Positions 1,353 to 59,387 of a DNA stretch of 64,000 nucleotides are shown here, piece after piece; position 1 is the first letter of the stretch, and the number at the start of each line of letters is the position of its first letter. Under the pieces are notes generated by a model. That model made no database searches and had not been told where the DNA came from. It worked only from the letters and a program-made list of their open reading frames with translations. The position numbers and the translations under genes are program-made. The DNA comes from Candidatus Binatia bacterium (GTDB taxonomy: Bacteria; Desulfobacterota; Binatia; Bin18): positions 1-64,000 of the forward strand of contig CAXXHG010000007.1 of NCBI GenBank assembly GCA_963666315.2. Direction: 5' to 3'.

Positions 1353-1359
<7 letters not shown>

Positions 1360-3245
1360 AGATAATACCCCAAAATCACAATCGCCCCACAGCTCAATGA
1401 CAGTGCATACGTCTGGACGTTGCCCGTTTGCCAGAAACGGAAGAACAAACCGTTGGCTTGCACCACCTGTGCCGTGCCGTTCACCAGCCCATCAATGACA
1501 ACCGCATCCCAGACCTTCCACAGCCAATCGGAAGCCGCCAGAATGGGCTGAACAATCATCGCTTCGTATATCTCATCAATATAATATTTATTGAGCAGTA
1601 ACTGATGCAGGCCGGAGAACCGCTGGCTGAGGCGGTCTGCCAGACCAGGATCTTGGACATACAGACGATAGGCCAGACCAATGCCGCCGAGTCCAAGCAT
1701 CGTTGGCAGATATTTCACAAGCGCCGGTACGTGGGGATGATCGTGACCATACAGCGGGCTGAGGAGTTCCGGGAGGGTAAAATATCCGCCGATCAAGGAG
1801 AAAATGGCCAGCACGACGAGCGGCATGGTCATTGCCTGGGGGGATTCATGGATATGATGGGCGATCTCAGGATCTGCTCTATTTTCTCCCCAGAAGGTAA
1901 CAAACAGCAAGCGAAACATGTAAAAGGCGGTTAAGCCTGCGCCGACCGTTCCGACAATCCACAATGCAGAAGACCCGTGCGGGCTGCCAAAGGCGTATTC
2001 GAGAATCAGGTCTTTACTAAAGAAGCCGGACAGTAGCGGAAAGCCGGCAATAGCCAGACAACCAACGGCAAAGGTACCGTACGTCGTTGGCATCTTTGTC
2101 CTGAGCCCGCCCATTTTAGTGATGTCCTGCTCGTCACTCATGCCGTGGATGACACTGCCTGCGCCCAAGAAGAGCAGGGCTTTGAAGAAGGCGTGAGTCA
2201 TGACGTGAAAAACGCCGGCGGTGTAGGCGCCCACGCCGAGACCCAGAAACATATAACCGAGCTGACTCACTGTAGAGTACGCTAGAATCTTCTTAATATC
2301 GGTTTGGACCAGGGCAATCGTGGCGGCGAATAGTGCGGTGCCTGCACCCACTGTTGCGACAACGGCTAGGGCCGTTGGTGAGAGGGAATACAGGAAGTGC
2401 ATGCGAGCAATTAAGTAGATGCCGGCTGTCACCATGGTTGCTGCGTGAATTAAAGCACTGACTGGGGTCGGACCGGCCATGGCATCAGGCAGCCAGACAT
2501 AGAGCGGGATCTGCGCGGACTTTCCAGCCGCGCCAACAAAGAACAATAGGCAGATGATCGTCACGGTGCCAACTGGGAGGACGGATACATGTGCTTCTAT
2601 TTCGCTGAAGGTGAGTGTCCAGACCTCGTGCGCCCCTAGGCTCCAAAACAAGAGGAAGAGACCCAGGAGAAAACCCGCGTCACCAATACGATTGACGATA
2701 AAGGCCTTCTTCCCTGCACTGGCCTTTTCAGCGTCCGTATACCAAAAGCCAATGAGCAAATAAGAACACAGGCCGACGCCTTCCCAACCGACGAAGAGTA
2801 ACAAAATATTATCGCCCAGTACCAGCAGCAGCATGGCTGTGGTGAAGAGATTGAGATAGGCAAAATAGCGCACCACGTCTTCATCGTGGGCCATATAGCC
2901 GACTGAATAGACGTGAATGAGAAAGCCGACCCCGGTGATGACCATAATCATCACGCCGGACAGCGGGTCGACCCGTAGGGCAATATCAACGTGCAGTGCG
3001 CCGGAATAAATCCAGGGATAAACCGTATCGATCAGAGCACCTCCGTCCGGCAGTTGGACAAAGGCCGCAAAGGCGAAGCAGAACGCCAGGAAGATCATGC
3101 CCGGCGAAACCCAGTTGACGACGCGCCTGCCGTAACGGGGGCCGAAAAACAAGTTGAACAATACCCCAAGAAAGGGAAATAGCACGATATAGCGGAGATA
3201 CGAGACGGTGTAGACGGCGACCTCAGCCGCGTGGGCGTGTTCCAT
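1353..3245 (-). CDS. nuoL: NADH-quinone oxidoreductase subunit L
   Basis: GWEGVG, GKSAQIPLYVWLPDAMAGPTPVSALIHAATMV, HAFFKALLFL, GFFSKD, NKYYIDE lateral helix. Confidence 0.96.
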
Positions 3246-3322: not shown

Positions 3323-3625
3323 TTACCACCGCATCAGATTGAGTTCGTCAGCATTCACTGTTGCTTTGCCACGGAAGACAAGCAAGATAATGGCGAGTCC
3401 TACCGCAACTTCAGCTGCAGCCACAGACATGACAAAGAAGACAATGATCTGCCCGTCCATGGACCCAAAATGGCGGGCCAGGGCAACAAAAGACAAATTG
3501 ACGGCGTTGAGCATAAGCTCGATAGACATGAAAATGATAATGATATTGCGGCGCAAGAGAACGCCTGTCACGCCTATCGTAAACAGAATGCCGCTCAGAA
3601 TAAGATGGTAACTTATCGGGACCAT
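3323..3625 (-). CDS. nuoK: NADH-quinone oxidoreductase subunit K
   Basis: [25 protein letters not shown]. Confidence 0.96.
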
Positions 3626-3645
3626 GTTTTCGTTCTTTGCTCTCT

Positions 3646-4134: not shown

Positions 4135-4139
4135 GCGAC

Positions 4140-5231: not shown

Positions 5232-5236
5232 AGCGG

Positions 5237-5719
5237 CTACGACTGTTCCGCCAGCTTGTCGATGAGGGTGCGCATGCCGTCTGGAGTCTGGTTTTCATGA
5301 TAGTCGTCATTAATCTGGACGACCGGAGCCGTTCCGCATGAGCCCAAGCACTCGACTTCACTCAATGAAAAGACCGCATCTTCGGTCGTCTGCCCGACTT
5401 TGACGCGGAGCTTGCTTTCCAGACTATGCACGATCTCCTCTGCACCCAGCAGGGTGCAGGACAAATTCGTACAGACCTGTACGTGAAATTTTCCCATCGG
5501 CTCCATGTAAAACATGGTGTAGAAGGTCGCTACTCCGCGGACATTGGCAGGCGAGAGGTCCAGCAGCCCGGCAACATACTCCATCACCTCAGGGCTCAGA
5601 TAGCCGAATTCTGTCTGGGCCAACCAGAAGGTGGGGAGCAGCGCGGCCTGTTTGGTTGGATAACGGGTCAGCACCTGTTCGAATTTTTTATAGGTCTCGT
5701 CTGAGAATTGTACCGCCAT
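5237..5719 (-). CDS. nuoE: NADH-quinone oxidoreductase subunit E (2Fe-2S)
   Basis: VATFYTMF, CTNLSC, ECLGSCGTAP. Confidence 0.94.
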   Translation of the reverse strand: MAVQFSDETYKKFEQVLTRYPTKQAALLPTFWLAQTEFGYLSPEVMEYVAGLLDLSPANVRGVATFYTMFYMEPMGKFHVQVCTNLSCTLLGAEEIVHSLESKLRVKVGQTTEDAVFSLSEVECLGSCGTAPVVQINDDYHENQTPDGMRTLIDKLAEQS

Positions 5720-5781
5720 AGTCCTAGCAATCAGCCTTCAACAATCAGTTTTCCAGGTTTCTCCAGCCCCCAGCCCCTCCC

Positions 5782-6990
5782 CTACCGATCGCACTCCCCC
5801 CCAATCATATTGACCATGCCGAAGGTCGTAATGATATCGGAGATCAGATGGCCCTGTAACATGTCGCCCATGGCCGCCATGCCGAAAAAGGATGGTCCAC
5901 GAACCCGGACCCGATACGGACGGCCACTCCCATCACTGACCAGGTAAAAACTGAGTTCCCCATTCGCTCCTTCGACACTCCGAAAGGCTTCGCCGGGCGG
6001 AATTTTGACTCCCTCAATGACAAGTTTGAAGTGGTTCATCAGACCTTCGATATTCCCATACACGTCCTTTTTCTCAGGCAGTGTAATCTGCGGATCGTCA
6101 ATGCGGATCGGGCCGCTGGGAATGCCGTTCAGCGCCTGTTCAATGATGCGCATGCTCTGCTTGAGTTCTTCAAAACGAATAGAAAAGCGGTCGTAATTAT
6201 CACCCTGGGTGCCTGTCGGGACATCAAAGTCAAAGTGGTCATAGACTAAATACGGTTGAGCCTTACGCACATCATACGGGACGCCGGTTGCTCGCAGGAG
6301 TGGACCGGTCAGGCTGTATGAAATGGCATCCTCTTGAGAAATCGCCCCAACCCCGGACATGCGATCAATAAAAATGCGATTTTTGGACAGCAACTTGTCG
6401 CAGTCATCGAGAATGCGGCGCATGTCAGCGAATGCCGCGCGAACTTGAGCGGCGAAATCGTTGGGAAGATCTTGTGTCACCCCCCCGACCCGGGCGTAGC
6501 TCACGGTCAGGCGCGCGCCAGTCACGGCTGCGATCAAATCGTACAGGGTCTCACGCGACTCCATCATATAGAAACCGACCGACACCGCACCGGCTTCTAC
6601 GGCTGCCATGGCTAAGCAGGTCAGATGGTCAGTAATCCGTGATATTTCACTCATAATCACCCGGATGTACTGGCAGCGTTCCGGGACTTCTACGTCGAGC
6701 AGTTGTTCCGCCGTCAGGGCAAACGCCACATTATTGATGAGCGGAGATGCATAATTCAGCCGGTCGGTATACGGGACACAGTGGTTCCAGGTCCGTTGTT
6801 CACACATCTTCTCGAATCCGCGATGGAGATAGCCTATCTCCACATCGCAGTTGAGAATTCGTTCGCCGTCGAGGGTGAGCGTGAACTTAATCGTACCATG
6901 CGTCGCCGGATGGGACGGACCCATTTGCAGCGTCATGATTTCGGAAGTCGGATCGTGTTCTGCAACTATTGGGGCTGCGGCTTCCGCCAT
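5782..6990 (-). CDS. nuoD: NADH-quinone oxidoreductase subunit D
   Basis: MGPSHPATHG, GYLHRGFEK, DRLNY, terminal GECDR. Confidence 0.96.
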   Translation of the reverse strand: MAEAAAPIVAEHDPTSEIMTLQMGPSHPATHGTIKFTLTLDGERILNCDVEIGYLHRGFEKMCEQRTWNHCVPYTDRLNYASPLINNVAFALTAEQLLDVEVPERCQYIRVIMSEISRITDHLTCLAMAAVEAGAVSVGFYMMESRETLYDLIAAVTGARLTVSYARVGGVTQDLPNDFAAQVRAAFADMRRILDDCDKLLSKNRIFIDRMSGVGAISQEDAISYSLTGPLLRATGVPYDVRKAQPYLVYDHFDFDVPTGTQGDNYDRFSIRFEELKQSMRIIEQALNGIPSGPIRIDDPQITLPEKKDVYGNIEGLMNHFKLVIEGVKIPPGEAFRSVEGANGELSFYLVSDGSGRPYRVRVRGPSFFGMAAMGDMLQGHLISDIITTFGMVNMIGGECDR

Positions 6991-6995
6991 AGTTG

Positions 6996-7505
6996 TTAGC
7001 CTTTATTCCACGGATTGGTGATCGGATCGCGTTCTTCGACCAAGGGTTGGCGTTTATTCACCGGATAATCTTTTCGGAGCGGATAGCCGCGGAATTCCTC
7101 ATACATCAGGATGCGACGCAGATCCGGGTGGCCGGAGAAGCTGATGCCAAACATGTCCCAGACTTCGCGTTCGAGCCAGTTCGCGGATTTCCACAGCGCG
7201 GAAATCGACGGGGTTTGGGCGTCGTCTTCGGGAAGTCGAATTTTTACTCGAATACGATGATTATGCGTAAGCGAATGGAAGTGATAGACGACCTCGAATC
7301 GGGGCTCCTTGCCAAAGAAATCTGCTGCAGTGAGATCAATCAGCAGGTTGAAAGCGAGATCCGCATTCTCCTTGAGTCCCCCCAAGACCTCAAGCGCGTC
7401 CGCCCGGTCGATCACAATCGTAGCATTCCCATGCAGGGAGTGCTGCTGTTGTATCTTACCGGGAAAAGCTGTTTCGATCTGAGAGAGAATGTCTGCTTCG
7501 GCCAT
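6996..7505 (-). CDS. nuoC: NADH-quinone oxidoreductase subunit C
   Basis: ANWLEREVWDMFGI.FSGHPDLRRILM...PLRKDYP. Confidence 0.95.
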   Translation of the reverse strand: MAEADILSQIETAFPGKIQQQHSLHGNATIVIDRADALEVLGGLKENADLAFNLLIDLTAADFFGKEPRFEVVYHFHSLTHNHRIRVKIRLPEDDAQTPSISALWKSANWLEREVWDMFGISFSGHPDLRRILMYEEFRGYPLRKDYPVNKRQPLVEERDPITNPWNKG

Positions 7506-7522
7506 TTCCGCCTAAGTGCTGG

Positions 7523-7876
7523 TCAGGTAGACTCCAGCCCCCCCTTTTTCACCTCGTAGATCAGACCGACAACCAGAACCAGGACAAAGAGCAGCATAGC
7601 CATGAATCCGAACAGCCCTAATTGGCGGAAGACCACGGCCCAGGGGTACAGGAAGACGACTTCTACATCGAAGACGATGAAGAGGATGGCGGCCAAATAG
7701 AACTTTACGGAAAAACGTCCCCAGGCCGAACCGCTTGGCGGATTGCCGCACTCAAAGGCTTCATCCTTTACCGGCGAGTGTGTCTTGATGCCCAGTACCG
7801 TGCTCGCAAAGGTCATGGCCAAGGCGATCACTCCACCAAGAATCAACGCAATGAGAACGGGGACGTATTGTTCCAT
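7523..7876 (-). CDS. nuoA: NADH-quinone oxidoreductase subunit A (start moved to ATG 7876)
   Basis: FECG, FYLAAILFIVFDVEVVFLYPWA; the longer ORF-track start would overlap the tRNA. Confidence 0.94.
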   Translation of the reverse strand: MEQYVPVLIALILGGVIALAMTFASTVLGIKTHSPVKDEAFECGNPPSGSAWGRFSVKFYLAAILFIVFDVEVVFLYPWAVVFRQLGLFGFMAMLLFVLVLVVGLIYEVKKGGLEST

Positions 7877-7932
7877 ACGAAAAACATTTTGCAGCGTAAC
7901 AGGTATGAGGGGCAGAGTGCTATCTTCGGCAC

Positions 7933-7960
7933 AAGATACAGAGGCCCGGCATAGTGTCAA
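7933..7960 (-). promoter_or_regulatory. Putative sigma70 promoter of the nuo operon
   Basis: TTGACA-16 nt-TATCTT on the minus strand, about 57 nt upstream of nuoA. Confidence 0.45.
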
Positions 7961-8066
7961 CGACCCCGAATCAGGCCTCTTCCCTTCCTTGCGGGAGGAA
8001 TGCGGAGGTGGTAAACCTCTTGCACGAATACTAACCCCGAGTATGCGTGGATGTTTTATTTTCTCG

Positions 8067-8157
8067 GGAGAGGTGCCAGAGCTGGCCGATTGGGCACGAT
8101 TGGAAATCGTGTGTACCCCTAACACGGGTACCGAGGGTTCGAATCCCTCCCTCTCCG
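8067..8157 (+). tRNA. tRNA-Ser(GGA), CCA not encoded
   Basis: Acceptor GGAGAGG/CCTCTCC, anticodon arm CACGA-TTGGAAA-TCGTG, long variable arm, GGTTCGAATCC; followed by TCA. Confidence 0.96.
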
Positions 8158-47025: not shown

Positions 47026-48654
47026 ATGACTCAAGAAGCAAACCAGGTGCCGAGAGGGACACTCGAAGGACTTCGTGACGTTTGGAAGTTCGACATCCTT
47101 TCGGGTTTTCTTGTCTTTCTGATTGCGCTGCCCCTTTGTCTTGGAATCGCCCTGGCGTGCGGATACCCGGCTATTGCTGGTATCTTCACTGCGATTATAG
47201 GTGGAATGCTGGCGACCTTTTTCAGTAATTCAGAACTCACTATCAAGGGGCCGGCAGCGGGCCTTATTGTTATAGCGATTGGCTGTGTCACTGAATTTGG
47301 TTTTACCGGGGGGACGGATCCGGTTGCCGACATGCAAGCCTATCGACTCGCCCTTGGAGTCGGTGTAGCCGCCGGTATTCTTCAAATTCTCATTGGCGTG
47401 TTTCGAGCTGGGATCCTTGGCGAGTTCTTCCCTACTTCGGCAATTCACGGGTTGCTTGCCTCAATTGGCGTGATCATCATGGCTAAGCAATTCCCGGTTA
47501 CCTTGGGCTTGGGACCGGAAGGCGCGCCGTTGGAACTGCTTGCAAGGATCCCACAATTCATCATGGATATGAACCCCATTGTAGCGCTCATTGGGATCAT
47601 CAGCCTGGTCATTATGTTCGGCTGGGAACATATTAGGATTCCGCGTCTTCAGGTGATTCCTGCCCCTGTGGTGGTCCTTCTTATTGCCGTCCCGATCGGA
47701 TTATATTTCGATCTTGGTCAAGAGCACACCTATTCGTTCGGCGGCCGCGAGTATCCTCTTGGAGGAAAATTTCTCGTCAATGTCCCCGACAATATAGTCA
47801 GCGCCATCGCATTTCCAGACTTTTCTGGCGTGGCCACTACCACAGGGCTGAAGTACATATTGATGTTTGCGTTGATTGGGAGTTTGGAATCTCTGCTGAG
47901 TGCGAAAGCAATCGACGAGATTGATCCATGGCGCAGAAAAACCAACCAGGACCGTGATCTGTTTGCCGTCGGGGTGGGGAATACCGTCTCCGCTCTCGTT
48001 GGTGGGTTGCCAATGATCTCGGAAATCGTGCGGAGCAAAGCCAATATCGATAACGGGGCGAGGACGCGATTCGCCAACGTGTTCCATGGGCTCTTTTTGC
48101 TCATCTTTGTCGCGCTCTTGCCGGGATTGATCAATCAAATTCCACTTGCTGCATTGGGCGCGATGTTGGTCCGCGTTGGTTTTCGTTTAGCGGCACCGCA
48201 AGAATTTCTCCATATGTACAAAGTCGGGCGCGAACAGTTGGTCATCTTTGTCTCAACGATTATCGGTGTCTTGGCAACGGATTTGCTCAGCGGGATTGCC
48301 ATTGGCATAGGCGTCAAGGCAGCCTTCCACATTTTTAATGGCGCGCCCTGGATTTCTCTTTTTCGACTAAGAGTCAACGTCGAGCGGGGAGAGAATGACG
48401 GGGTAACGGTTGCCGTGAAAGACTCTGCAATATTCAGCACGTGGATCGGATTAAAGAAAAGATTGGAGCACTTGAAGGGGGAGCCCAAGGTGGTTCTCGA
48501 CTTATCGGAGACCTCCTTTGTTGACCACACCGTGATGGAACGGCTGAAGGAGATGCAAAATGAATTCAAGGAGAATGACTCTATATTGATCATAACCGGA
48601 TTAGACCAACACCGAAAGCTCTCGGATTATCCCACTGCCGCCCGGAAAATGTAA
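47026..48654 (+). CDS. SulP/SLC26 anion (probably bicarbonate) transporter with STAS-like C-terminus
   Basis: SG..VFLIALPLCLGIALA, GPAAGL, LESLLSA.A.D, GGLPMISEIVRS.AN, DHT.ME. Confidence 0.9.
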   Translation: MTQEANQVPRGTLEGLRDVWKFDILSGFLVFLIALPLCLGIALACGYPAIAGIFTAIIGGMLATFFSNSELTIKGPAAGLIVIAIGCVTEFGFTGGTDPVADMQAYRLALGVGVAAGILQILIGVFRAGILGEFFPTSAIHGLLASIGVIIMAKQFPVTLGLGPEGAPLELLARIPQFIMDMNPIVALIGIISLVIMFGWEHIRIPRLQVIPAPVVVLLIAVPIGLYFDLGQEHTYSFGGREYPLGGKFLVNVPDNIVSAIAFPDFSGVATTTGLKYILMFALIGSLESLLSAKAIDEIDPWRRKTNQDRDLFAVGVGNTVSALVGGLPMISEIVRSKANIDNGARTRFANVFHGLFLLIFVALLPGLINQIPLAALGAMLVRVGFRLAAPQEFLHMYKVGREQLVIFVSTIIGVLATDLLSGIAIGIGVKAAFHIFNGAPWISLFRLRVNVERGENDGVTVAVKDSAIFSTWIGLKKRLEHLKGEPKVVLDLSETSFVDHTVMERLKEMQNEFKENDSILIITGLDQHRKLSDYPTAARKM

Positions 48655-48662
48655 GGAAGGTC

Positions 48663-51659
48663 TTGACACAAGTAATAGAGTCGGAACGGATTTCATTTGA
48701 ACCGACTTCAAAGCGGTTTCGATCGCTTTCCTCGGGAGAGCGAGGGCGAGTGCGCGATGCGGTCGCTGAGGCGTGTAAGCCGATTGCCCAGTCATGGCCG
48801 ATGAAGACGTTTGCTTATCGCAATCCTCTTCGCGGCTGGGAACACTTGCCGTTTGACGAGGCCATTCGCGAAGCCAAATATCTGCTGGGAGGAAACGGTT
48901 ACATCCCGAACGACGACTACCGTCAACTGTATCGGGAAGGACGTGTTACGGAGGATGCCGTCAAGCAGGCTCTGCAGGTGGTCGCCTCAAGCGTCGGTGT
49001 GCAGACTGTCACCGTAGGCCATCGTCAAGTCGTGACATCGGAAGTGTTGCGCCTGCATCTTGTGTTCGGATTCGATTCGCTGGACCCGACCCTGTTAACC
49101 TGGCAGTTTGGCGGCGGATGCGCAACAGAGCAGTTTCGAGATGATCTGCCGCCGGAGTCTAGGAAGCCACAAAACGGCGACGCGTCTTATTTGTCGAAAC
49201 TGTGGAAGAGCACGTTATCCGCGCTCGGCCTTTCTGTTGGGACCGACGATCCGCGGGCACAGGTCAGCGAGGAAGGAACGAGTCCCAGCGTTGATTTGCC
49301 TTCCGGAAGAACGCTCAGTGATTGGCTGGGATTACTGGCCGGAGCTTCTTTGGTCGATGAGATCAACGATCAGATGATAAAGTGGACCGGAGCCTTTCTT
49401 GATGAAGGAATGGCCGATTGGGAGATGCCCGGCCGGAAGGCTGGGTTTTATCGCGCGTGGCGAACGCTCGCGGCAAGGGACTTTTCTGGACGTTTCCTTG
49501 GCATCAAACAGTTCGCGACGAAGGTCCGCGATTTGCCGGACTCACCGGAAGATGCAATCGCTCGCAGCCTCCAGGGGCTTGGGATTCCCGAACAGGGATG
49601 GGCGGATTACCTGTCACGCCAGTTAGCCCAGTTGCCGGGTTGGGCCGGATTCATTCGCTGGCTGGGCGAAAACCCTGGTTATGCTGCTCAAAAACAGCAT
49701 CCGATCGACCCGCTTCAATATCTGGCAGTTCGCCTCTTCTATGAAGTCGAACTCGTCGATACGTGCTGCCGCCAAGAGTGGGGTATTGACGGGACGCTGC
49801 CGGCCCTCGTCTCCTCTTGGGAGGGGCGCAGGGATGAGTACCAGAAGCTCGGAGGGCGTGATTCGCGTGCGACCGGCCGCTATGTTCAATCCGTGTGTGA
49901 CGATGCGTGGCGCCTCTTTCATCTGGCGCAGTTTCTGCAACTGTCTCCCGACGATGTGGACACGCTTTCCCCCGCCGATGCGCGGACTCTGCTGTCTTGG
50001 TTGGACGCACTTCCCAGCGATGAGCACGGTCGGGTGTGGTTAGATGCGCTGGAGTCGAGCTATCGCAAGCAACTGATCGAGCGGCTCGCCAACCATAATG
50101 CCGAGCCAGGCACCAATGAAGACCGGACCGAAAACCGTCCGCGGGCCCAGCTTGTCTTGTGTATCGACGTGCGCTCGGAGTCGTTCCGCCGTCACATTGA
50201 GGCCCAAGGGCTCTATGTGACATTCGGCTATGCGGGCTTCTTCGGCATTCCCATCAGCTTTCAAGCGTTCGACAGCTCGGCACGGGCCGCTTTGTGTCCG
50301 GTCATCGTGCCGCCGGGGTTCAACGTCGATGAGGTTCCGCGTGGCGGCGAAGAAGGGCCACTCAACCATTACGCGGTGGGATCGAGGTGGAACCAACTCG
50401 GCGAGCACCTGTTTCATGCCTTAAAGAGCAATCCAGTCTCGTCGTTGATGTTGATAGACGTGCTGGGCCTGTTTTTTAGCGCGCGGCTGTTCGGAAAAAC
50501 GTTTTTGCGCATGCCGTACGAAGCGATCAAGGCGCGTGTACATGACTGGTTTATTGGTTCGGTGGCGACCCAGATCCCCGTCGATCGCACGGAAGATGGA
50601 CAAGACGGACACGCTGAACCGCCCGCCGGACCGCCGCACGGTTTCACACCAGAGGAACAGGCGACGTTTGTTGAAAAAGGACTGCGGGCGATTGGACTGA
50701 CACGGAACTTCGGCCGGTTCATCGTGCTGTGCGGCCACGGTAGCACGTCAGACAATAATCCCTTTTTCGCCGCGTATAACTGCGGCGCGTGTGGCGGCGG
50801 TCATGGCGATCCGAATGCGCGGGTGTTCGCGGCGATGGGGAATCGGGGGCACGTCCGGCGCGCTCTTAAAGAGCATGGACTGGATATTCCGGACGACACA
50901 CGGTTCCTTGCCGCCAAACATAACACAGCGACCGACCGAGTCTCGTTTTATGACGTACAAGATGTGCCGACGAGCCACGCCGACGACCTCCGTCGGCTCA
51001 CCGAGGACTTGGAAGAGGCCGGCCGCCATCAGGCGCTCGAACGATGCCATCGCATACCGCAAGCGCCCACGGACATTTCGCCGCAAGCCGCCACGGACCA
51101 CATGCTGTCGCGTACGGTCGACTGGACGAATGTTCGGCCCGAATGGGGCTTGTCCAGCAACGCTGCTTTCATTCTAGGACGCCGTTCGCTCACCAAAGAC
51201 CTTGATTTGGGTGGGCGGGTCTTTCTGCACTCCTACGATCCGGACGCTGATACTGAGGGGGCTATCCTCGAAGCGCTCATGAATGCACCAGTGGTCGTTG
51301 CGCAGTGGATTAGCATGGAATACTACTTCTCGGCCGTTGATCCGGTCGTCTACGGAAGCGGCAGCAAAGTGACGCACAATGTGGTCGTTGGTGTCGGTGT
51401 GATGCACGGCAGCCACGGTGACTTACAATCGGGCTTGCCGTTGCAGAGCGTCAACAACGGCCCGCGGCACTATCACGAACCGGTCCGTCTGTTGGTCATC
51501 GTCGATGCACCCAGGAGCCGTATTGCCGCTGTCATCGCCAAGCACACTCAGTTACAACACTTGTTCCAAAACCAATGGATCGGCCTGGTGGCGATGGATC
51601 CGGTGACTCGAGATTTTCACCGATTTCGCCCAGACGCGACGTGGGAGGTGTGCCAGTGA
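48663..51659 (+). CDS. dabA: DUF2309 / DabA (MpsB) inorganic carbon pump subunit, beta-carbonic-anhydrase-like
   Basis: WP...F...NPL.G, LPGWAG, CIDVRSE, GYAGFFG, CGHGS...NNP, CGACGG, HNTATD, RPEWGL, R.FLHSYD, GSGSK..HN, HEPVRL. Confidence 0.93.
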   Translation: MTQVIESERISFEPTSKRFRSLSSGERGRVRDAVAEACKPIAQSWPMKTFAYRNPLRGWEHLPFDEAIREAKYLLGGNGYIPNDDYRQLYREGRVTEDAVKQALQVVASSVGVQTVTVGHRQVVTSEVLRLHLVFGFDSLDPTLLTWQFGGGCATEQFRDDLPPESRKPQNGDASYLSKLWKSTLSALGLSVGTDDPRAQVSEEGTSPSVDLPSGRTLSDWLGLLAGASLVDEINDQMIKWTGAFLDEGMADWEMPGRKAGFYRAWRTLAARDFSGRFLGIKQFATKVRDLPDSPEDAIARSLQGLGIPEQGWADYLSRQLAQLPGWAGFIRWLGENPGYAAQKQHPIDPLQYLAVRLFYEVELVDTCCRQEWGIDGTLPALVSSWEGRRDEYQKLGGRDSRATGRYVQSVCDDAWRLFHLAQFLQLSPDDVDTLSPADARTLLSWLDALPSDEHGRVWLDALESSYRKQLIERLANHNAEPGTNEDRTENRPRAQLVLCIDVRSESFRRHIEAQGLYVTFGYAGFFGIPISFQAFDSSARAALCPVIVPPGFNVDEVPRGGEEGPLNHYAVGSRWNQLGEHLFHALKSNPVSSLMLIDVLGLFFSARLFGKTFLRMPYEAIKARVHDWFIGSVATQIPVDRTEDGQDGHAEPPAGPPHGFTPEEQATFVEKGLRAIGLTRNFGRFIVLCGHGSTSDNNPFFAAYNCGACGGGHGDPNARVFAAMGNRGHVRRALKEHGLDIPDDTRFLAAKHNTATDRVSFYDVQDVPTSHADDLRRLTEDLEEAGRHQALERCHRIPQAPTDISPQAATDHMLSRTVDWTNVRPEWGLSSNAAFILGRRSLTKDLDLGGRVFLHSYDPDADTEGAILEALMNAPVVVAQWISMEYYFSAVDPVVYGSGSKVTHNVVVGVGVMHGSHGDLQSGLPLQSVNNGPRHYHEPVRLLVIVDAPRSRIAAVIAKHTQLQHLFQNQWIGLVAMDPVTRDFHRFRPDATWEVCQ

Positions 51660-52144
51660 AATCGAGCCGCAACTCTACGCTGACGATCAAGACCTGTACC
51701 TTTTTCCTCATCTGGCTGCTCTTGTCTGAGAGCTTTGCCGGACTGCATGTAGTATTGGGGGTCGTCGTGGCCTTCGGTGTCGCCTGGTTGAACACCGACC
51801 GCTCCTCAACTTGCTCGTCTATCCGCGGCTGGCGCATGTTGTGGTACTTCCCCTGGTTGGTGGGCCGCATTCTGCAGAGTGGTTGCCATCTTTCTATGCT
51901 CATTCTGAATCCGGCTCTCCCCATCGACCCGAAGATGATTCGTCACCGGACCGAGTTGCAAGACGACGATCACATTGTGCTGCTCGGCAATTCCATCACG
52001 TTGACACCTGGCACGATCACCGTCGAGGTCGATTCTCAGGATTTGGTCATCCACGCCATGGACGACAGTTCCGCCGCCGACGTTACGAGCCGGCGAATCG
52101 AGCAGCGGATTGACAGCGTATTTATCGCGAGAGGTACAAAATGA
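51656..52144 (+). CDS. mrpE: Mrp/Mnh antiporter subunit E
   Basis: LGNSITLTPGTITV, L.IHA; GTG overlaps the dabA stop. Confidence 0.9.
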   Translation: MKSSRNSTLTIKTCTFFLIWLLLSESFAGLHVVLGVVVAFGVAWLNTDRSSTCSSIRGWRMLWYFPWLVGRILQSGCHLSMLILNPALPIDPKMIRHRTELQDDDHIVLLGNSITLTPGTITVEVDSQDLVIHAMDDSSAADVTSRRIEQRIDSVFIARGTK

Positions 52145-52410
52145 ACGCTTTTTTCCTGTTCGTGCTGATGACCATCACCCTTCTGATTGCCATCTACTTA
52201 TACCGCGTTCTTCGTGGACCGACGGTGTTTGACCGGGTGTTGGGTCTGAACGGAATCTCGACCAAGGCGATCATCCTGCTGGTCGTGATCGGCACCTTCT
52301 ACGAACGCGTCGACATGTTTGTGGATATTTCAACCGGCTATGCTTTGTTGAACTTGGTTGGCTCGCTAGCCATCGTCAAGTATCTGGAAGAACGGAAGGA
52401 GATCTTTTAA
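52141..52410 (+). CDS. mrpF: Mrp/Mnh antiporter subunit F
   Basis: YR...GPTVFDRV, DI...YALLN..G.LA..KY. Confidence 0.9.
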   Translation: MNAFFLFVLMTITLLIAIYLYRVLRGPTVFDRVLGLNGISTKAIILLVVIGTFYERVDMFVDISTGYALLNLVGSLAIVKYLEERKEIF

Positions 52411-52748
52411 TGTCTCTGAATAAACTATCTGAAGCAGCACAATGGGTCATCACGCCGGTGTCGATCGGCTTGATTCTGGTTGGCTTGTTCTTTCTGTTCG
52501 TGGCGGCAATCGGAGTACTGCGCTTTCCGGACGTCTATACGCGGTCGCACGCCGTCTCGCTGACCGATTCATTGGGTGCGTTTTTTCTGCTGGGCGGATT
52601 GGCACTGTATGAAGGTTTGAGTACCAACCTGGTCAAGATCCTGGTCGTACTCGTCCTGTTGTACTTGCTGAATCCGGTTATCACCCACGCCACGGTTCGA
52701 TCGGCGTATCGTTGCGGCCTTCAACCTTGGAGCAAAGACGACGCATGA
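52410..52748 (+). CDS. mrpG: Mrp/Mnh antiporter subunit G
   Basis: G.LRFPDVYTR.HA....D.LG, NPV..HA. Confidence 0.92.
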   Translation: MSLNKLSEAAQWVITPVSIGLILVGLFFLFVAAIGVLRFPDVYTRSHAVSLTDSLGAFFLLGGLALYEGLSTNLVKILVVLVLLYLLNPVITHATVRSAYRCGLQPWSKDDA

Positions 52749-53275
52749 TCTATTCGATCGAGATCCCGCTCTTGATTCTGCTGCTTATGACCGCTGCAGG
52801 TGCGATCATTGTAAAGGACTTGATCAGCTCGGTTTTTATTTTGGGGACATATAGCTTTCTGCTCGCCCTTGTGTGGGCGTGGCTGGGGGCGGTGGATGTG
52901 GCTTTTGTTGAAGCCGTGGTGGGAGCTGGTTTGGCGACGGTGTTCTTTTTATTGACGCTTTTCGGAACGGCGCCGAAAGACATACGCATTCGGCGATCCG
53001 CACCGCCGCTAACTGCCTTTGTCGGGCTGCCTGTGCTCGGACTGTTGTTGTTATACGCGGCGGAAGATCTTCCTAAATTCGCGGACCCGCATTCGCCGGC
53101 CAGCCTCCATGTGTCCCCTGCGTACCTTACAAACAGCCTGAAAGAGATGGACACACCAAACGTCGTGACGGCGGTGCTGATGGATTATCGGGCGTTCGAC
53201 ACGCTGATTGAAACCGCAGTGATCTTTATCGCCGGCCTCGCCTGCGCTTTGCTGTTGCGGAGGAATCAAGAATGA
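52745..53275 (+). CDS. DUF4040 plus MnhB-like subunit (MbhD/E-like, equivalent to the MrpA C-terminus)
   Basis: AVDVAFVEAVVGAG, PNVVTAVL.DYRAFDTL.E. Confidence 0.88.
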   Translation: MIYSIEIPLLILLLMTAAGAIIVKDLISSVFILGTYSFLLALVWAWLGAVDVAFVEAVVGAGLATVFFLLTLFGTAPKDIRIRRSAPPLTAFVGLPVLGLLLLYAAEDLPKFADPHSPASLHVSPAYLTNSLKEMDTPNVVTAVLMDYRAFDTLIETAVIFIAGLACALLLRRNQE

Positions 53276-53721
53276 TCCACGCACACGACAGCATCATAGT
53301 CCGGACGACGAGCCGGATACTGATTCCGTTGATCCAGTTGTTTGGGCTGTACGTCCTGTTCTTTGGCCAATTGGGACCGGGTGGCGGGTTCGCCGGCGGA
53401 GTCATACTGGGCACGAGCCTCATTTTGGGGATCCTCGTATTTGGTCCGGATGCTCCCGTGTGTCGCTTGGCGAGCAAGGTCATTCATGGTGAGGGGGTTG
53501 GACTGATGATCTTTGTCGGCGTCGGAGGATTGTGCTTGATCGGAGGTGGCGAATTTTTGAACTACGGGAACCTGGACATCCCTTGGATCGATTCCGCCGC
53601 GCGGCGACGTTCCCTGGGTATTGTGTTGACCCAAATTGGGGTCGCCGTAGATATCGCCGTCACGGCAATCTCGATTGTTATAAGTTTGTCGCTCATTAAC
53701 AGCGAGGAATCTCATGATTGA
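53272..53721 (+). CDS. mrpB: Mrp/Mnh antiporter subunit B
   Basis: GPGGGFAGG, G..FL.Y. Confidence 0.88.
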   Translation: MIHAHDSIIVRTTSRILIPLIQLFGLYVLFFGQLGPGGGFAGGVILGTSLILGILVFGPDAPVCRLASKVIHGEGVGLMIFVGVGGLCLIGGGEFLNYGNLDIPWIDSAARRRSLGIVLTQIGVAVDIAVTAISIVISLSLINSEESHD

Positions 53722-54109
53722 GTTTATCGAAGCGGCCCTGCAAAGACCCAACTTCATCGCCTTTGTGGTGCTGTTTCTTTGGGGTCTTTTCATCATGAAC
53801 ACCCATCCAAACCTGGTGAAGAAACTGATCGGCATGTACATTGTCCAGACAAGCATCCTGCTTTTGATCGTCACAATTGGTGTCAAGCAGGAGGCAACCG
53901 TTCCCATCCTGCAGGGAAGCGACGCGGTGCTGTCCACAGCGGACCAGATGTCCCCGCCCAATTACACCAATCCCTTGCCACACGTTTTGACCTTAACGGC
54001 AATCGTGGTGCAAGTCGCGACCTTGGGCGTCTCGCTGGCTTTGGTCACCGCACTCTACCGGAAATACGGCAGCCTGGATGAAGACGAGATTCTGCAGAAG
54101 ATTGAATGA
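53714..54109 (+). CDS. mrpC: Mrp/Mnh antiporter subunit C
   Basis: NLVKK.IG, NPLPHVL.LTAIVV. Confidence 0.92.
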   Translation: MIEFIEAALQRPNFIAFVVLFLWGLFIMNTHPNLVKKLIGMYIVQTSILLLIVTIGVKQEATVPILQGSDAVLSTADQMSPPNYTNPLPHVLTLTAIVVQVATLGVSLALVTALYRKYGSLDEDEILQKIE

Positions 54110-55602
54110 GCGACCATCTTCCTGTGATCCTGTTTTTGCTGCCCTTTGCGACGGCCATCTGCCTGCCGATGGTTGGTGCGAGACGGTCCGCTTGGTGTCG
54201 TCCAATGGCGTTGACGGCCTTGCTTGCCATGTGCGTCGTGGCAGTGATCAATGTTTGGATCGTTGTCGAGCATGGGGATACGCGGTACGCATTTGGCGGC
54301 TGGCCCATCAGTACAAGTCTGCCAGATCACCCGCTTGGCATCGAATGGGTCAACGATGGTTTGGCGAGTGCGATGCTCGTCGTGCTCAGCTTCCTGGCCT
54401 GGTTGTGTTTGTTCTATAGCGGACCTCTCACGCCACGGTCACTGGGTGCGCGCGAGGTCCTGTACTACGCCTTGCTGCTGCTCTTGATTTCTGGTTTGAC
54501 CGGGATTGTGCTGGCTGGGGATATCTTTAATGTCTTCGTGTTTCTGGAAGTTGCGGCACTGTCTGCCTATGGGCTGGTCGGGATTCCCGGCGGTCGAGCG
54601 CTGATTGTTGCGTTTCGATATCTCATCCTGGGAACGCTCGGTGCTTCGTTTTACCTGCTGGGGGTCGTTTTCTTTTATGCATCAACAGGCACCTTGAATA
54701 TGGCGGATCTCGCGCAGCAAATGGCCGCCAAGCCGGAATTGATGGCCTCGAAAGCGGTCATCGGCGGGACCACGTTTATGCTCATCGGTCTCGGAATCAA
54801 GATGGCGCTGTTTCCACTTCATGGTTGGCTACCCGGCGCCTATACCCGCGCTCCAGACTCGATTTCGCCGCTGCTCGCTTCCCTGATGACAAAAGTTGCC
54901 CTGTATGGATGGGTCCGCATCATGTTTTGGGTGCTTGGCGCTCGTGCGGAAATTGGGCAAGTCCACTTGCTGACATTACTAAGCGGACTGGGTTCCCTGG
55001 CGGCCGTGGCTGGTGCCCTGTTGGCATTACGCCAACAGGACGTGAAGCGGATGTTTGCGTATGGCGGCATTTCCCACGTCGGCTTGATCCTGATTGGAGT
55101 GAGTCAGGGGAACCAAACCGGCTTTGCGGGGAGCATGTTCTACCTGATCAACGACGCCGTCATGCAAGCTGGACTGTTCTTCATCGCAGGGGCGGCAATT
55201 CACCAGTATGGAGCGCGAACGGTGGAAGACCTGTCGCGTTTGCGGCGATCACCCTGGATGATCGGTGCGATCATTGTATTGGCAATGTCCATGATTGGCA
55301 TTCCACCAACCGGCGGGTTCTTTGGGAAATGGTACATTATCCTGGGTGCCATCGAAGCGGGCAACTATCTGGCTGTTGCAGCCGTCGTTGTCGCTACGTT
55401 GTTGACGATGGCGTATTTTCAACGCGTGTTCGTCCGCATTTTTGACGACACTCAAGAGTCGTCAACCACGGACGATGCTGACATGCATCCGGCCCTGAAA
55501 CTGAGTATGGGACTGACCGCGGGAGCGGTCATTGCCTTGGGGTTCTGGAGCGACCCCATAATCAGGTTTTTCCGGGAAGTGGCTGCAACCGCTGGCCTGT
55601 GA
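54106..55602 (+). CDS. mrpD: Mrp/Mnh antiporter subunit D
   Basis: GDIFN.FVFLEV, TGTLNMADL, IKMALFPLHGWLP.AY, TKV, GIPP..GFFGKW. Confidence 0.92.
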   Translation: MSDHLPVILFLLPFATAICLPMVGARRSAWCRPMALTALLAMCVVAVINVWIVVEHGDTRYAFGGWPISTSLPDHPLGIEWVNDGLASAMLVVLSFLAWLCLFYSGPLTPRSLGAREVLYYALLLLLISGLTGIVLAGDIFNVFVFLEVAALSAYGLVGIPGGRALIVAFRYLILGTLGASFYLLGVVFFYASTGTLNMADLAQQMAAKPELMASKAVIGGTTFMLIGLGIKMALFPLHGWLPGAYTRAPDSISPLLASLMTKVALYGWVRIMFWVLGARAEIGQVHLLTLLSGLGSLAAVAGALLALRQQDVKRMFAYGGISHVGLILIGVSQGNQTGFAGSMFYLINDAVMQAGLFFIAGAAIHQYGARTVEDLSRLRRSPWMIGAIIVLAMSMIGIPPTGGFFGKWYIILGAIEAGNYLAVAAVVVATLLTMAYFQRVFVRIFDDTQESSTTDDADMHPALKLSMGLTAGAVIALGFWSDPIIRFFREVAATAGL

Positions 55603-55641
55603 CAAATTTTTATATCGAATTATATTAATGGAACAATTTTA

Positions 55642-57861
55642 ATGTCGGTTGTGTATGTCCTGATACCCCTTTTACCCTTGCTTGCCAGCATCATTATCGC
55701 GTTCGCCGGGCGGCGCTTGGGGCAAGACAGTGGTAAGCTCGGTGTGCTCGCGATCGGCATCTCATTTGCTTTGTCGGTCGCAGCCTTCGTTCAGGTCGTC
55801 CTCCAAAGTGACCCAATTGTCATCAGTCTGTACGAACTGCTTCGGTCTGGAAATCTGAGTGTCGAACTGGGCTTGTATGTTGACCAACTTGCTGTATTGC
55901 TGCTGCTGTTAGTGACCGGCGTGAGCCTTGTGGTTCACGTGTACTCCTCCCGCTACATGATCGGGGACGCGCGCTACAGCCGGTTCTTCGCTGTGATGGC
56001 CCTGTTTACTTTTGGCATGCTGACGCTAGTCATGAGTAGCAACCTGCTCATGATGTTCATGTGCTGGGAAGTCATGGGCATCTGCTCCTATCTGCTGATC
56101 TCCCACCAATCCGATCGAAAGGCGGCTTGCAACGCGGCGACAAAGGCCTTTCTCGTCAACGCCGTGGCCGACATTGGTCTGTTGTTCGGCATCATTCTGA
56201 CCTTTGCCACGTTCGAGACGCTGGATGTCCGGCAGATCCTCAGTCAGTCCGCGAGCGTCAGCGGACAGACCATCAACCTGCTGGCATGGGTTGGCTTTGA
56301 ATGGCACGTTCGTACGGTCACGTTGATCACGCTCTTGCTGTTTATGGGATGCTTGGGTAAATCGGCTCAGGTTCCATTCCATGTGTGGTTGCCTAACGCA
56401 ATGGAGGCCCCAACCCCCGTCTCGGCACTGATTCACGCTGCCACGATGGTCAATGCCGGGCCTTATTTGTTGGTTCGATTCAGCGACTTGGTACTACTGT
56501 CGCCTGCGGCGATGATGGTGATCGCCATTATCGGTGCAACGACCGCGCTGTTCGCCGCGATGGTCGCTCTGACGCAGAGCGATATCAAGAAGATCCTCGC
56601 CTATTCCACGATCAGCCAAATCGGTTTCATGATCATGACATGTGGCCTGGGGGCGTTTATGGTGGCTATCTTTCATATGTTGGCTCACGGATTCTTGAAG
56701 GGCTTCCTGTTTTTATCGACAGGCAACGAGCTCGCATCAGCCGGCTCGCACGCACACCACGTACCCACACGACCGAAACTGTTGTCGCCGGTATCCCTCG
56801 GGGCGTTGATCCTGGCCTGTGCTCCGCCCGCGCTGATCTTCTCGGGTCCATATGGGGCACTGTGGACGGTCCACAATTCGAGCGCCGCTCAGATCGCTTT
56901 CTGGGTGATCGGCTTGCTGACCGTCTTCTTCACGGCCATGTATCTTTTTCGCGGACTTACCTCGTTGTTTCAGCCAGCCACATCCGCGCTCGTTCAGCCG
57001 CGGTTCTTTTCCCCTTTGCATCTCGTGGCTATCATCGTCGGATCGCTCGGGTTGATCAGCACTTTGTTGGCGCTCTGGGTGTGGTTTGTACCGTTCCTGG
57101 CACCGGCAATAGCGACGCCATATCCACTCGTCGAGGGCTTCTGGCAGACGAGTCACGTGCCGTTGCTCGTATTGGCCCTGGTGGCGGCGCTGGCTGGCTG
57201 GGGCTTGGCGGCGCTGCTTCAGGCAAGACCCATGCTGTCCGCCGTTCCTCGCTTGCACTTCGCACAAACGATGTACGTGCTGTTTCTCAACAAATTCTAT
57301 TTCGATGAGGCGTATAGCCTGTACATCGTTCAGCCCATGGTCCGAATGGTCAAGTGGCTGTGGCGTGAGATCGACGTTGGCGTCATCAACGGTCTGATCC
57401 ATGGGATGGCTGCGAGGTTGGTTCGCTTTGGCCAGTGGCTGTGGGAGACAGTCGACGTTCGCGGTATTGATGACGTGGTTCGTCGTCTTGCAAGGAATAC
57501 TGTCCTTTTTGGCCGGTGGCTGTGGGAGACAGTCGACGTTCGCGGTATTGATGACGTGGTTCGTCGTCTTGCAAGGAATACTGTCCTTTTTGGCCGGTGG
57601 CTGTGGGAGACAGTCGACGTTCGCGGTATTGATCGCATGGTCGTCGAAGGTGGTCAACAGAGTGCGGGGCTATCCCAGTGGCTGTGGGAGGCAGTCGACG
57701 TTCGCCGAATCGAGAAAGGCGCGGACCAAGTAGATCGTGCAGCCGAAGCCAGCGGGAAGAAACTGAACGAAGTCGAACCACGGCCGATTCAAGACCACTT
57801 GGGTGTGTTGATCGCATGGTTAGTCGCGGTCATCCTGTTTTTCTATTGGCTCGTATTATAA
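55642..57861 (+). CDS. NuoL/DabB-like proton-translocating subunit with expanded lateral helix
   Basis: WEVMG, GKSAQVPFHVWLP.AMEAPTPVSALIHAATMVNAG, HGFLK..LFL, NKFYFDE; lacks GFFSKD. Confidence 0.9.
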   Translation: MSVVYVLIPLLPLLASIIIAFAGRRLGQDSGKLGVLAIGISFALSVAAFVQVVLQSDPIVISLYELLRSGNLSVELGLYVDQLAVLLLLLVTGVSLVVHVYSSRYMIGDARYSRFFAVMALFTFGMLTLVMSSNLLMMFMCWEVMGICSYLLISHQSDRKAACNAATKAFLVNAVADIGLLFGIILTFATFETLDVRQILSQSASVSGQTINLLAWVGFEWHVRTVTLITLLLFMGCLGKSAQVPFHVWLPNAMEAPTPVSALIHAATMVNAGPYLLVRFSDLVLLSPAAMMVIAIIGATTALFAAMVALTQSDIKKILAYSTISQIGFMIMTCGLGAFMVAIFHMLAHGFLKGFLFLSTGNELASAGSHAHHVPTRPKLLSPVSLGALILACAPPALIFSGPYGALWTVHNSSAAQIAFWVIGLLTVFFTAMYLFRGLTSLFQPATSALVQPRFFSPLHLVAIIVGSLGLISTLLALWVWFVPFLAPAIATPYPLVEGFWQTSHVPLLVLALVAALAGWGLAALLQARPMLSAVPRLHFAQTMYVLFLNKFYFDEAYSLYIVQPMVRMVKWLWREIDVGVINGLIHGMAARLVRFGQWLWETVDVRGIDDVVRRLARNTVLFGRWLWETVDVRGIDDVVRRLARNTVLFGRWLWETVDVRGIDRMVVEGGQQSAGLSQWLWEAVDVRRIEKGADQVDRAAEASGKKLNEVEPRPIQDHLGVLIAWLVAVILFFYWLVL
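57355..57759 (+). repeat. Five in-frame 81-bp (27-aa) tandem units in the L-like gene
   Basis: TGGCTGTGG unit starts at 57355, 57436, 57517, 57598, 57679; units 2 and 3 are identical, the others diverged. Confidence 0.95.
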
Positions 57862-57896
57862 CAATTTATAACAAGGCGCCCTGAAGAGTTGATGCT

Positions 57897-59387
57897 ATGA
57901 ATGAACACCTGCTGTCTTTGATTATTTCCGTTCCTTTTGTTGGCATTGTGGTCCTGGCATTCGCGCCAAGCGAGCCGTGGATGCGGCGAATTGCGCTTGG
58001 CTGCACGCTGCTGGCCTTCGGGCTCTTCCTGATTCTCTGGTCCGGGTTCGACCCCAATGAGCAGGGCATGCAGTTTGTGGAGCGTATGCAGTGGATGCCG
58101 ACATTCAACATTCAATATGCGGTTGGCGTAGATGGCATCAGCATCCTCTTGGTGTTGCTCACAACACTGCTGTCCCCTCTGTGCGTGTTGTGTTCGTGGA
58201 CTTCGATCACCTCGCACGTGCGGGCCTTCATGATGCTGATTCTCCTGGTCGAAGGCGCCATGCTGGTGGTTTTTACGGCCCTGGACCTGTTCCTGTTCTT
58301 TATGATGTGGGAAGTCACGATGATTCCTATGTACTTTATGATCATCCTCTGGGGCGGACCCGGACGGATTGCCGCGGGGTTGAAGTTCATCCTGTATAGT
58401 TTGACGGGAAGCCTACTGCTGCTCGTGGGGATTCTGGGACTTTACGTCCAAGGCGGACATACTTTTGACATGATTGCCCTGGCGGAGCAGACCTATTCTT
58501 CCACATCCCAGTTTTGGATGTTTCTAGCTTTCATGTTGGCCTTTGCCATCAAGCTTCCGATGTTTCCGTTTCACACCTGGCTGCCTGACGCCCACGCTGA
58601 GGCGCCCACGGCCGGCAGTGTCATTTTGGCCGGCGTGCTTTTGAAAATGGGCGGATATGGATTCTTGCGGATTTGTCTGCCGATCCTTCCCGATGCGTCA
58701 GCGAGCTTTGCTCCCTTTATGCTCTGGTTGTCGGTTGTGGCGATTCTGTACGGCGGGTTTATGGCCCTCGCCCAGGACGACATCAAAAAGCTTGTCGCCT
58801 ATTCGTCGATCTCTCACATGGGGTTCGTTACGCTGGGTATCTTCGTTTTCAATAGCCAGGGGATCCAAGGCGCGATTCTCCAAATGTTCAACCACGGGAT
58901 CGTCACCGGGGCGATGTTCCTTGCGGTCGGCGTGTTATACGACCGCACGCACAGCCGACTGATCGGGGACTACGGCGGGCTGCACAAACAGATGCCACGG
59001 TTTGTCGCCCTGTTTTGTGTTTTCTCGGTGGCATCTTTCGGGCTGCCGGGGACGTGCGGTTTTATTGGCGAGGTCCTGGTATTGCTTGGCACCTCAGAGG
59101 AGAGTTTCGTTCTGGTCTTACTCGCCATGGGAGGCATCGTACTGGCGGCGTCTTACATTCTATGGATGTTCCAACGAGTGGCGTTGGGACAGGCTGGCAC
59201 GCAAGTCGCCTCGCAGCTTTCTGACATCACCGTCCGTGAAACGGTAACTCTCGCGCCGCTCGCCCTGGTGGTGTTTGCTGTCGGCGTCTATCCACGCCCA
59301 CTTATGGAATTGATCGACGCCGGCGTCACCAAACTCGTGGAACTGACTCGTCAGGGACTGCCGCCCGAGATAACGGGCCTTTTCTAG
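57897..59387 (+). CDS. NuoM-like proton-translocating subunit
   Basis: GVDGIS, MWE...IPMY, IKLPMFPFHTWLPDAHAEAPTAGSVILAGVLLKMGGYG, FIGE. Confidence 0.93.
   Translation: MNEHLLSLIISVPFVGIVVLAFAPSEPWMRRIALGCTLLAFGLFLILWSGFDPNEQGMQFVERMQWMPTFNIQYAVGVDGISILLVLLTTLLSPLCVLCSWTSITSHVRAFMMLILLVEGAMLVVFTALDLFLFFMMWEVTMIPMYFMIILWGGPGRIAAGLKFILYSLTGSLLLLVGILGLYVQGGHTFDMIALAEQTYSSTSQFWMFLAFMLAFAIKLPMFPFHTWLPDAHAEAPTAGSVILAGVLLKMGGYGFLRICLPILPDASASFAPFMLWLSVVAILYGGFMALAQDDIKKLVAYSSISHMGFVTLGIFVFNSQGIQGAILQMFNHGIVTGAMFLAVGVLYDRTHSRLIGDYGGLHKQMPRFVALFCVFSVASFGLPGTCGFIGEVLVLLGTSEESFVLVLLAMGGIVLAASYILWMFQRVALGQAGTQVASQLSDITVRETVTLAPLALVVFAVGVYPRPLMELIDAGVTKLVELTRQGLPPEITGLF

Follow-up and report, generated by a model that had tools for sequence, protein, structure and literature searches.

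The tandem array in the L-like gene

The window analysed here is a 64,000-nucleotide (nt) stretch of contig CAXXHG010000007.1 (assembly GCA_963666315.2, positions 1 to 64,000) from a Candidatus Binatia bacterium. It carries an eleven-gene row for a beta-carbonic-anhydrase-like subunit (DabA) and an Mrp-like membrane complex, within which one gene, here called L-like, encodes a NuoL/ND5-type antiporter-like subunit with an unusually long lateral helix (HL). The added length is made of tandem 27-residue units that begin with the motif W-L-W. As set out below, the HL of this subunit holds an array that is modular, recombination-prone and under selection, and its copy number is quantised and labile while the gene content around it stays constant. 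The features of the gene, and the ordinary NuoL of the same window that served as an internal comparison, are as follows.

55642..57861, plus strand: L-like, a NuoL/ND5-type antiporter-like subunit with repeat-lengthened lateral helix, 739 residues; PF00361 and PF00662
57289..57354, plus strand: start of the lateral helix, 22 residues from NKFYFDE; common to ordinary NuoL and MrpA
57355..57435, plus strand: unit 1, 27 residues, the closest to NuoL of all units
57436..57516, plus strand: unit 2, 27 residues, identical to unit 3
57517..57597, plus strand: unit 3, 27 residues, identical to unit 2
57598..57678, plus strand: unit 4, 27 residues; codons 1-12 match units 2 and 3, the remainder diverged
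57679..57774, plus strand: unit 5, terminal, 32 residues; hydrophilic, a distinct type kept across the family
57775..57858, plus strand: EPRP..DH motif and final transmembrane (TM) helix, the TM16 equivalent; the motif replaces QTGN..Y of ordinary NuoL
57427..57633, plus strand: near-exact 81-nt tandem tract (Tandem Repeats Finder: period 81, 2.6 copies, 99% matches)
1353..3245, minus strand: ordinary NuoL of the nuo operon, 630 residues, one W-L-W unit

The family assignment of the L-like protein is clear. It matches PF00361 in its core (E 4.3e-62) and PF00662 at its N-terminus (E 1.8e-16), its C-terminal part follows the plan of NuoL/ND5/MrpA-type subunits, with TM15, then an amphipathic lateral helix and a last TM helix, and among solved chains it scores higher against NuoL (273 bits) than against MrpA (142) or DabB2 (124). 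From N550 (position 57289) its tail runs through 22 residues, four 27-residue W-L-W units, one 32-residue W-L-W unit, the EPRP..DH motif and a terminal hydrophobic helix, with the stop codon (57859-57861) directly after that helix. The original prediction had laid out the tail in this way, and translation of the open reading frame (ORF) together with repeat searches bears it out; the latter return a 39-nt core in five copies, spaced by exactly 81 nt and 67-100% identical. In the family alignment, conservation is 90% or higher at six positions of the terminal motif and helix (P713, R714, Q717, L720, L727 and Y735).

The window's NuoL is 36% identical to the L-like protein overall and has a tail of 22 + 32 + 8 + 17 residues with a single W-L-W unit. 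Against it the L-like tail shows a clean 108-residue insertion with gap-free flanks, as had been claimed, plus three additional C-terminal residues that the earlier account had left out. The same account held that two units are identical in DNA and the others diverged, and this too is what the sequence contains: in the register that starts at W, units 2 and 3 are identical, and the single mismatch lies in the preceding codon, which is Q before unit 2 and R before unit 3. Two small features flank the gene. An AT-rich 39-nt spacer precedes it, where the MrpE-to-D genes overlap instead, and a 10-nt direct repeat of 1.9 copies (57856-57874) covers its stop codon and the AT-rich spacer before M-like.

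Copy number in the assembled window

One explanation of the array is that an assembler duplicated one of two identical units. Units 2 and 3 are indeed identical, the public contigs searched (Logan, four runs) all break at the repeat so that none bridges the tract, and single-unit differences do exist between some near-identical metagenome sequences. Such an artefact is nevertheless very improbable. An independent metagenome-assembled genome (MAG) with 93% identity (L001), assembled separately, shares the five-unit layout, including the two identical units, and does so with sequence variants of its own. Five units are also found in 13 of 93 homologues, whose units are mostly diverged. Unitig depths point the same way in runs X1 and X3, where a 104-nt junction unitig lies at 1.7-2.0 times and a 37-nt core unitig at 2.8-3.0 times the flank depth, against 2 and 3 predicted from the layout of the window; the window may itself derive from these runs, and what they check is the assembler's repeat resolution and not biology. 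In run X4 the flank depths are unequal (6.45 and 3) and the ratio is ambiguous. As no contig bridges the tract, the support for the copy number comes from unitig depth and from L001. Were one unit to be removed, three extra units would still be left.

What a unit is

The 322 units of 87 proteins are strongly patterned. Conservation reaches 95% at W1 and W3, 93% at D7, 83% at R9 and 84% at I11, and positions 13-24 are variable and often glycine-rich. The Asp and Ile-Asp signature of the units is what ordinary NuoLs conserve at the same place, both in the alignment and in solved chains, and the proposal that each unit reproduces NuoL's central HL module holds. The conserved Asp of the units may be the equivalent of Asp563 of E. 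coli NuoL, a residue implicated in proton translocation; the alignment to the solved chain ends at chain residue 562, two query residues short of that position, and a literature search for 'D563' returned nothing. Two other identities for the units were considered and set aside. Transmembrane segments and coiled coils both fit poorly, as each unit has several charged residues and a mean hydrophobicity of about zero, and 27 is not a multiple of the heptad.

Purifying selection acts on the repeat region, where the ratio of nonsynonymous to synonymous substitution rates (dN/dS) is 0.13-0.37, compared with 0.03-0.08 in core stretches, over pairs with unsaturated dS; three pairs with misaligned cores (core dN above 1.6) were dropped along with the saturated pairs.

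Homologue lengths are quantised and labile

The breadth of the array was followed in two sets of homologues, with tail length taken from the start motif to the C-terminus. A scan of loci, one genome per species, gave 46 loci, 26 with an L-like orthologue and the others with ordinary NuoL genes. The 19 ordinary NuoLs among them that carry the start motif have tails of 79-86 residues, and the L-like orthologues have tails of 109, 135-138, 162-163 or 190 residues. A wider search with residues 540-739 against a collection of 5.8 billion proteins yielded 94 proteins, 95 with the query, of which 93 could be measured (the motif pattern failed in two). Their tails fall at 107-109 (4 proteins), 135-136 (33), 162-164 (38) and 189-191 residues (13), corresponding to 2, 3, 4 and 5 units, so that 88 of 93 lie on these steps. 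The expected quantisation at 27 residues is therefore found. Five tails are off-class (121, 140, 140, 145 and 147 residues), at least one of them with a frame-shifted end. A five-unit query means that this search favours long forms; a HMMER search with the 190-residue tail against 1.84 billion representatives gave 81 matches, many of them fragments, none with more than five units.

The unit number is also unstable over short evolutionary distances. On a maximum-likelihood tree of 84 proteins, built from the core with the repeat region excluded, it shifts at least 31 times. Proteins with identical cores differ in it, two having four units (P0017 and P0020) and one three (P0049), and near-identical sequences lack different units, leaving the patterns first-second-third, first-second and second-third. 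Since the units within those near-identical sequences are mutually only 56-59% identical, simple assembly collapse is an unlikely source for most of the copy-number differences. Adjacent units that are 89-100% identical occur at varying positions in many proteins, three-unit forms included, which indicates that unit gain and loss is recurrent and ongoing and substantiates the repeated expansion that had been read from the window's own units. As to mechanism, unit-precise gain and loss would probably proceed by unequal recombination between the 81-nt units.

Several gammaproteobacterial orthologues (L017, L019-L021, L023 and L024) depart from the strict period. Their middle units are 25 residues long and have lost the W-L-W start while keeping an L-D..I-D signature, which marks the strict 27-residue period as a feature of the Planctomycetota/Nitrospirota branch.

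The eleven-gene row

The L-like gene stands in the row SulP-DabA-MrpE-F-G-A'-B-C-D-L-M (47026-59387, plus strand), which is conserved across phyla. Its other members are the following.

47026..48654, plus strand: SulP-family transporter, first of the row; beside DabA in most related loci
48663..51659, plus strand: DabA (PF10070), the beta-carbonic-anhydrase-like subunit, 998 residues; E 9.9e-264, 877.7 bits
51575..54109, plus strand: MrpE-F-G-A'-B-C genes, assigned by Pfam; most overlap by a few bases
54106..55602, plus strand: D-like, an MrpD/MbhH-type subunit, 498 residues; MbhH and MrpD chains are its nearest solved relatives
57897..59387, plus strand: M-like, a NuoM-type subunit, 496 residues, the end of the row; PF00361, 431 bits to a solved NuoM chain

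MrpB, C, D, E, F and G are all present (PF01899, PF04066, PF03334, PF04039, PF00420, PF00361), and the MrpA C-terminal domain is found as a separate MbhD/MbhE-like gene (A'). M-like is the best-conserved gene of the row, at 68-99% identity over 23 orthologues. Further conserved genes were sought beyond it, and the two ORFs that follow are kept in L001 alone, which makes M the last gene of the row. Carriers of the row include Planctomycetota, Nitrospirales, Nitrospinota, Gammaproteobacteria and MAGs of Acidobacteria. It is complete from DabA to M in 18 of the 26 orthologue loci, cut by contig ends in seven and fragmented by frame breaks in one (L026), and a near-full-length DabA lies in the same row in 19 related loci. 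By its gene content, the row is a putative inorganic-carbon (CO2-uptake) pump, and it may constitute an antiporter-driven CO2-hydration machine.

No second D-, L- or M-like gene was found in the row at any of the 26 loci. The original prediction had proposed that HL length might track the number of M-like genes; it does not, for the array ranges from two to five modules while the row has one D-, one L- and one M-like gene throughout.

Module number and pump genes in related complexes

Ordinary antiporter-like subunits provide a calibration for the length of the strap. In an ordinary MrpA of the same genome the 22-residue stretch leads directly into a QTG-like motif, which amounts to zero modules where one subunit is spanned. 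In ordinary NuoL a single module (19 scanned loci, three solved chains and 56 surveyed loci) goes with two spanned subunits, and loci with a second NuoM gene have two modules. The idea of one module of about 26 residues per extra pump subunit thus fits this series of 0 (MrpA), 1 (NuoL) and 2 (second NuoM), and it agrees with PMC9040806, which reports a 26-residue HL insertion in the NuoL of the Nitrospira 2M complex I and in MrpD2/NuoL of 'Ca. Manganitrophaceae'. The same source also reports HL insertions in some Manganitrophaceae complexes that have no additional subunits.

How far the rule extends was surveyed in 92 NuoL loci of complex I type, each with 5 kb or more of downstream sequence and an end motif that could be recognised. 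Loci without an extra module have two other pump genes in 49 of 56 cases and three in 0 of 56. Among the 34 with one extra module, three other pump genes occur in 13, four in one, two in 19 and one in one. An extra module looks necessary for a fourth pump gene, yet its presence does not predict one.

These counts bear on the possibility that the array is a ruler, in which each unit docks one antiporter-like subunit and a strap of n units keeps the product of the single M gene in place n times over between L and D. The series 0, 1, 2 for one, two and three spanned subunits is what a ruler would give, as is the failure of any of the 56 loci to have a fourth pump gene without the module. Every unit bears the canonical signature, the unit types are interchangeable, and the strap ends in a conserved anchor; HL has been reported to link the TM7 helices of neighbouring antiporter-like subunits (PMC7419157). 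No gene of the row is better conserved than M-like, and the L and M genes have intergenic spacers of their own where the MrpE-to-D genes overlap, so that unequal expression of L and M would be possible.

Still, we regard the ruler as unlikely. Gene content is constant over two to five units, and identical cores that differ in unit number, with at least 31 changes on 84 tips, would imply frequent jumps in pump stoichiometry. An extra pump gene is absent from 19 of the 34 NuoL loci with an extra module. In addition, 27 residues make 7.5 helical turns, which excludes a simple unbroken helix rising 1.5 A per residue, and we know of no case of homo-oligomeric stacking of an antiporter-like subunit. 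If the ruler were nonetheless true, the count of ion channels for each CO2 hydrated would follow from the repeat number, recombination would shift an evolvable 'gear ratio' of an inorganic-carbon pump, and a doubled subunit would be present in the many ordinary complex I variants whose HL has an extra module while their loci have no additional gene.

Several observations on the nuo and Mrp genes of this and other genomes can be recorded here. The genome has a second nuo operon, which encodes a 725-residue NuoL (L047 8109-10286, minus strand; G000 contig C10) with one extra 26-residue module and an extra C-terminal hydrophobic helix, followed by only one nuoM (519 residues) and one nuoN (504 residues). 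The nuo operon of the window itself (1-8125, minus strand) includes NuoA (200 residues, with a 100-residue N-terminal extension), C, D, E, H, J, a 400-nt gap (3246-3645), L and M; none of its scanned ORFs is nuoB, F, G or I, the gap lies outside the scan, and the contig begins inside nuoM. Two ordinary Mrp antiporters of the genome (G000 contigs C47 and C30) have MrpA frames of 929 and 938 residues and an MrpD each, and the C30 copy has one in-frame TAG in each of its two matches. Lastly, a 338-residue metagenome fragment of an ordinary-type NuoL (P0151, with the TGN..Y end) has about five 26-residue F-D-x-R-x-I-D-G modules, from which it follows that multi-unit lateral helices arise outside the DabA-Mrp family too. 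Its operon was sought in genome and metagenome contigs and was not found there, the best relatives being at most 49% identical and having at most one extra module.

Structure and path of the extension

The original prediction had also put 27 helical residues at about 40 A, roughly the width of one subunit. As one straight helix the array cannot be kept: 7.5 turns would put successive units on opposite sides, and in an ideal-helix calculation the hydrophobic moments of the amphipathic segments of units 2 and 3 are 180 degrees apart. The array is thus not one straight surface helix, and each unit needs a break. An AlphaFold2 model of the L-like protein, made with an 84-row alignment, is confident in the core and has a predicted local distance difference test score (pLDDT) of 30-60 in the extension, below 50 from residue 626. 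It places a helix at 554-603, a break at V-D-V-R-G-I of units 2 and 3 (low confidence) and a terminal helix at 716-738. For comparison only, the model of the window's ordinary NuoL has one continuous HL at 553-605 (pLDDT about 56-68), of a length similar to the L-like helix at 554-603. The repeats adopt no confident compact fold in the AlphaFold2 model with the 84-sequence alignment, weak evidence that they may need partners. A control-free complex prediction with two M-like copies scored 0.00 and bears neither way on stacking.

Another reading is a cytoplasmic scaffold or docking array, in which the extra units would leave the membrane surface as a multivalent platform and bind DabA, the cytoplasmic domain of SulP or a second protomer. 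The last unit of the array is hydrophilic and carries many charges, the genes for DabA and SulP are kept close by, and Mrp complexes are reported to dimerise via MrpE (10.1101/2022.01.24.477492). The lability of the array would also suit this role. Multivalent scaffolds typically vary in copy number. We nevertheless consider a docking array quite unlikely: the compact fold is wanting in the model, the membrane-interface W-L-W motif is kept in the units, and DabA length (955-1032 residues) has no relation to unit number over 19 loci.

The reading that we prefer, tentatively and at somewhat less than even chances, is a segmented strap that tolerates differences in its own length. HL would be a segmented amphipathic strap lying on the cytoplasmic membrane surface, running from TM15 of the L subunit to the conserved terminal membrane helix. 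Each unit would form an amphipathic helix of about 20 residues, after which the phase of the helix would be reset at the conserved V-D-V-R-G break. Such a strap would be longer than the row of L, M and D requires, and its surplus could pass onward along the block of Mrp small subunits or lie as slack at the membrane surface. A copy number between two and five units would be tolerated, and the subunit count would not be fixed by it. We infer both the course that the strap takes and that no further subunit copies are present. In keeping with such tolerance, extra HL length without an extra gene is common, in 19 of 34 NuoL loci with one extra module and in the genome's second NuoL.

There are several points that weigh against a tolerant strap. 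The signature is strongly kept in all units, and unit types are freely interchanged between near-identical strains, both of which would be expected of repeated contacts with identical partners and favour the ruler. The highly conserved terminal helix and motif suggest a specific docking site and fit poorly with slack. The total absence of a fourth pump gene from the 56 ordinary complex I loci that have no extra module shows that module number carries structural meaning. Assembly errors could explain some of the copy-number differences between near-identical metagenome sequences, and at the pLDDT of the extension the path of the repeats is unreadable from the model.

The lateral helix is among the most debated parts of complex-I-type machines, with interpretations that range from a piston to no more than a strap or to a ruler that fixes how many pump subunits there are. 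The L-like family is a natural series, with two to five strap modules on constant genes, and could reveal whether strap length dictates subunit number.

Relation to known systems

The closest relatives of the array are the lateral helices (TM15-HL-TM16) of complex I subunits NuoL, Nqo12, ND5 and NdhF, with which L-like shares the start motif, the module and the terminal helix. Ordinary NuoL has one module, whereas L-like has five in a variable tandem array outside a nuo operon. A literature search of titles and abstracts found no description of a multi-unit or variable-length HL. The 2M complex I has one extra module of about 26-27 residues at the same place in HL as the L-like units, and a third or fourth additional pump gene is found in 14 of the 34 loci with one extra module. 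The 2M-type insertion as described in PMC9040806 is single and fixed, while the L-like family has one to four extra modules, labile in number and never with an extra pump gene in the row. The row also lacks the additional NuoM gene of a 2M complex and the setting of a nuo operon with its redox module, the nuo operon of the window being elsewhere.

With the Mrp (CPA3) antiporters (6z16_A, 7qru_A, 7d3u_A) the row has in common MrpE, F, G, B and C and an MrpD-type subunit. The Mrp structure papers (10.1101/2022.01.24.477492, PMC7419157) describe the MrpA lateral helix, and in the former a membrane helix anchors the strap, a feature that the L-like strap shares. The genome's own MrpA differs in having no W-L-W module and a fused C-terminal domain, for which the row has a gene of its own, and both L and M of the row are subunits of complex I type. 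Related loci have been touched on before. COGNAT (PMC5700660) describes a clade with a DabA homologue upstream of a NuoL homologue and with SulP and NuoM genes near, Daebeler et al. (PMC7784846) describe a Nitrospira Mrp locus with NuoL/NuoM-like genes and BicA, and the Desmarais preprint (10.1101/476713) mentions Mrp only as a member of the PF00361 family.

There is a functional parallel in the cyanobacterial NDH-1MS complex, in which the carbonic-anhydrase-like CupA sits on the L-type end (NdhF3/NdhD3) of a row of antiporter-like subunits. The analogy is one of working principle only: NDH-1MS is driven by redox chemistry, CupA and DabA are unrelated, and no repeat array is described for it. 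Solved chains 6tjv_F and 6tjv_D are among the structural matches of L-like and M-like.

The DAB1 and DAB2 pumps (DabA-DabB, with DabC in DAB1) share with the row a full-length DabA beside a PF00361 partner, and DabB is likewise NuoL-like (10.64898/2026.03.13.711513, 10.64898/2026.05.01.722082). According to the available text of these two structure papers, which presents no such large complex, DAB complexes have two or three subunits and a DabB of about 550 residues with a short HL, whereas the row has DabA, nine membrane-subunit genes and a very long HL. The array draws attention to a DabA-Mrp complex with eleven genes, present in marine Planctomycetota, Nitrospirales, Nitrospinota and Gammaproteobacteria, which greatly exceeds the solved two- and three-subunit DAB pumps in size and may use a sodium/proton antiporter module to drive CO2 hydration.

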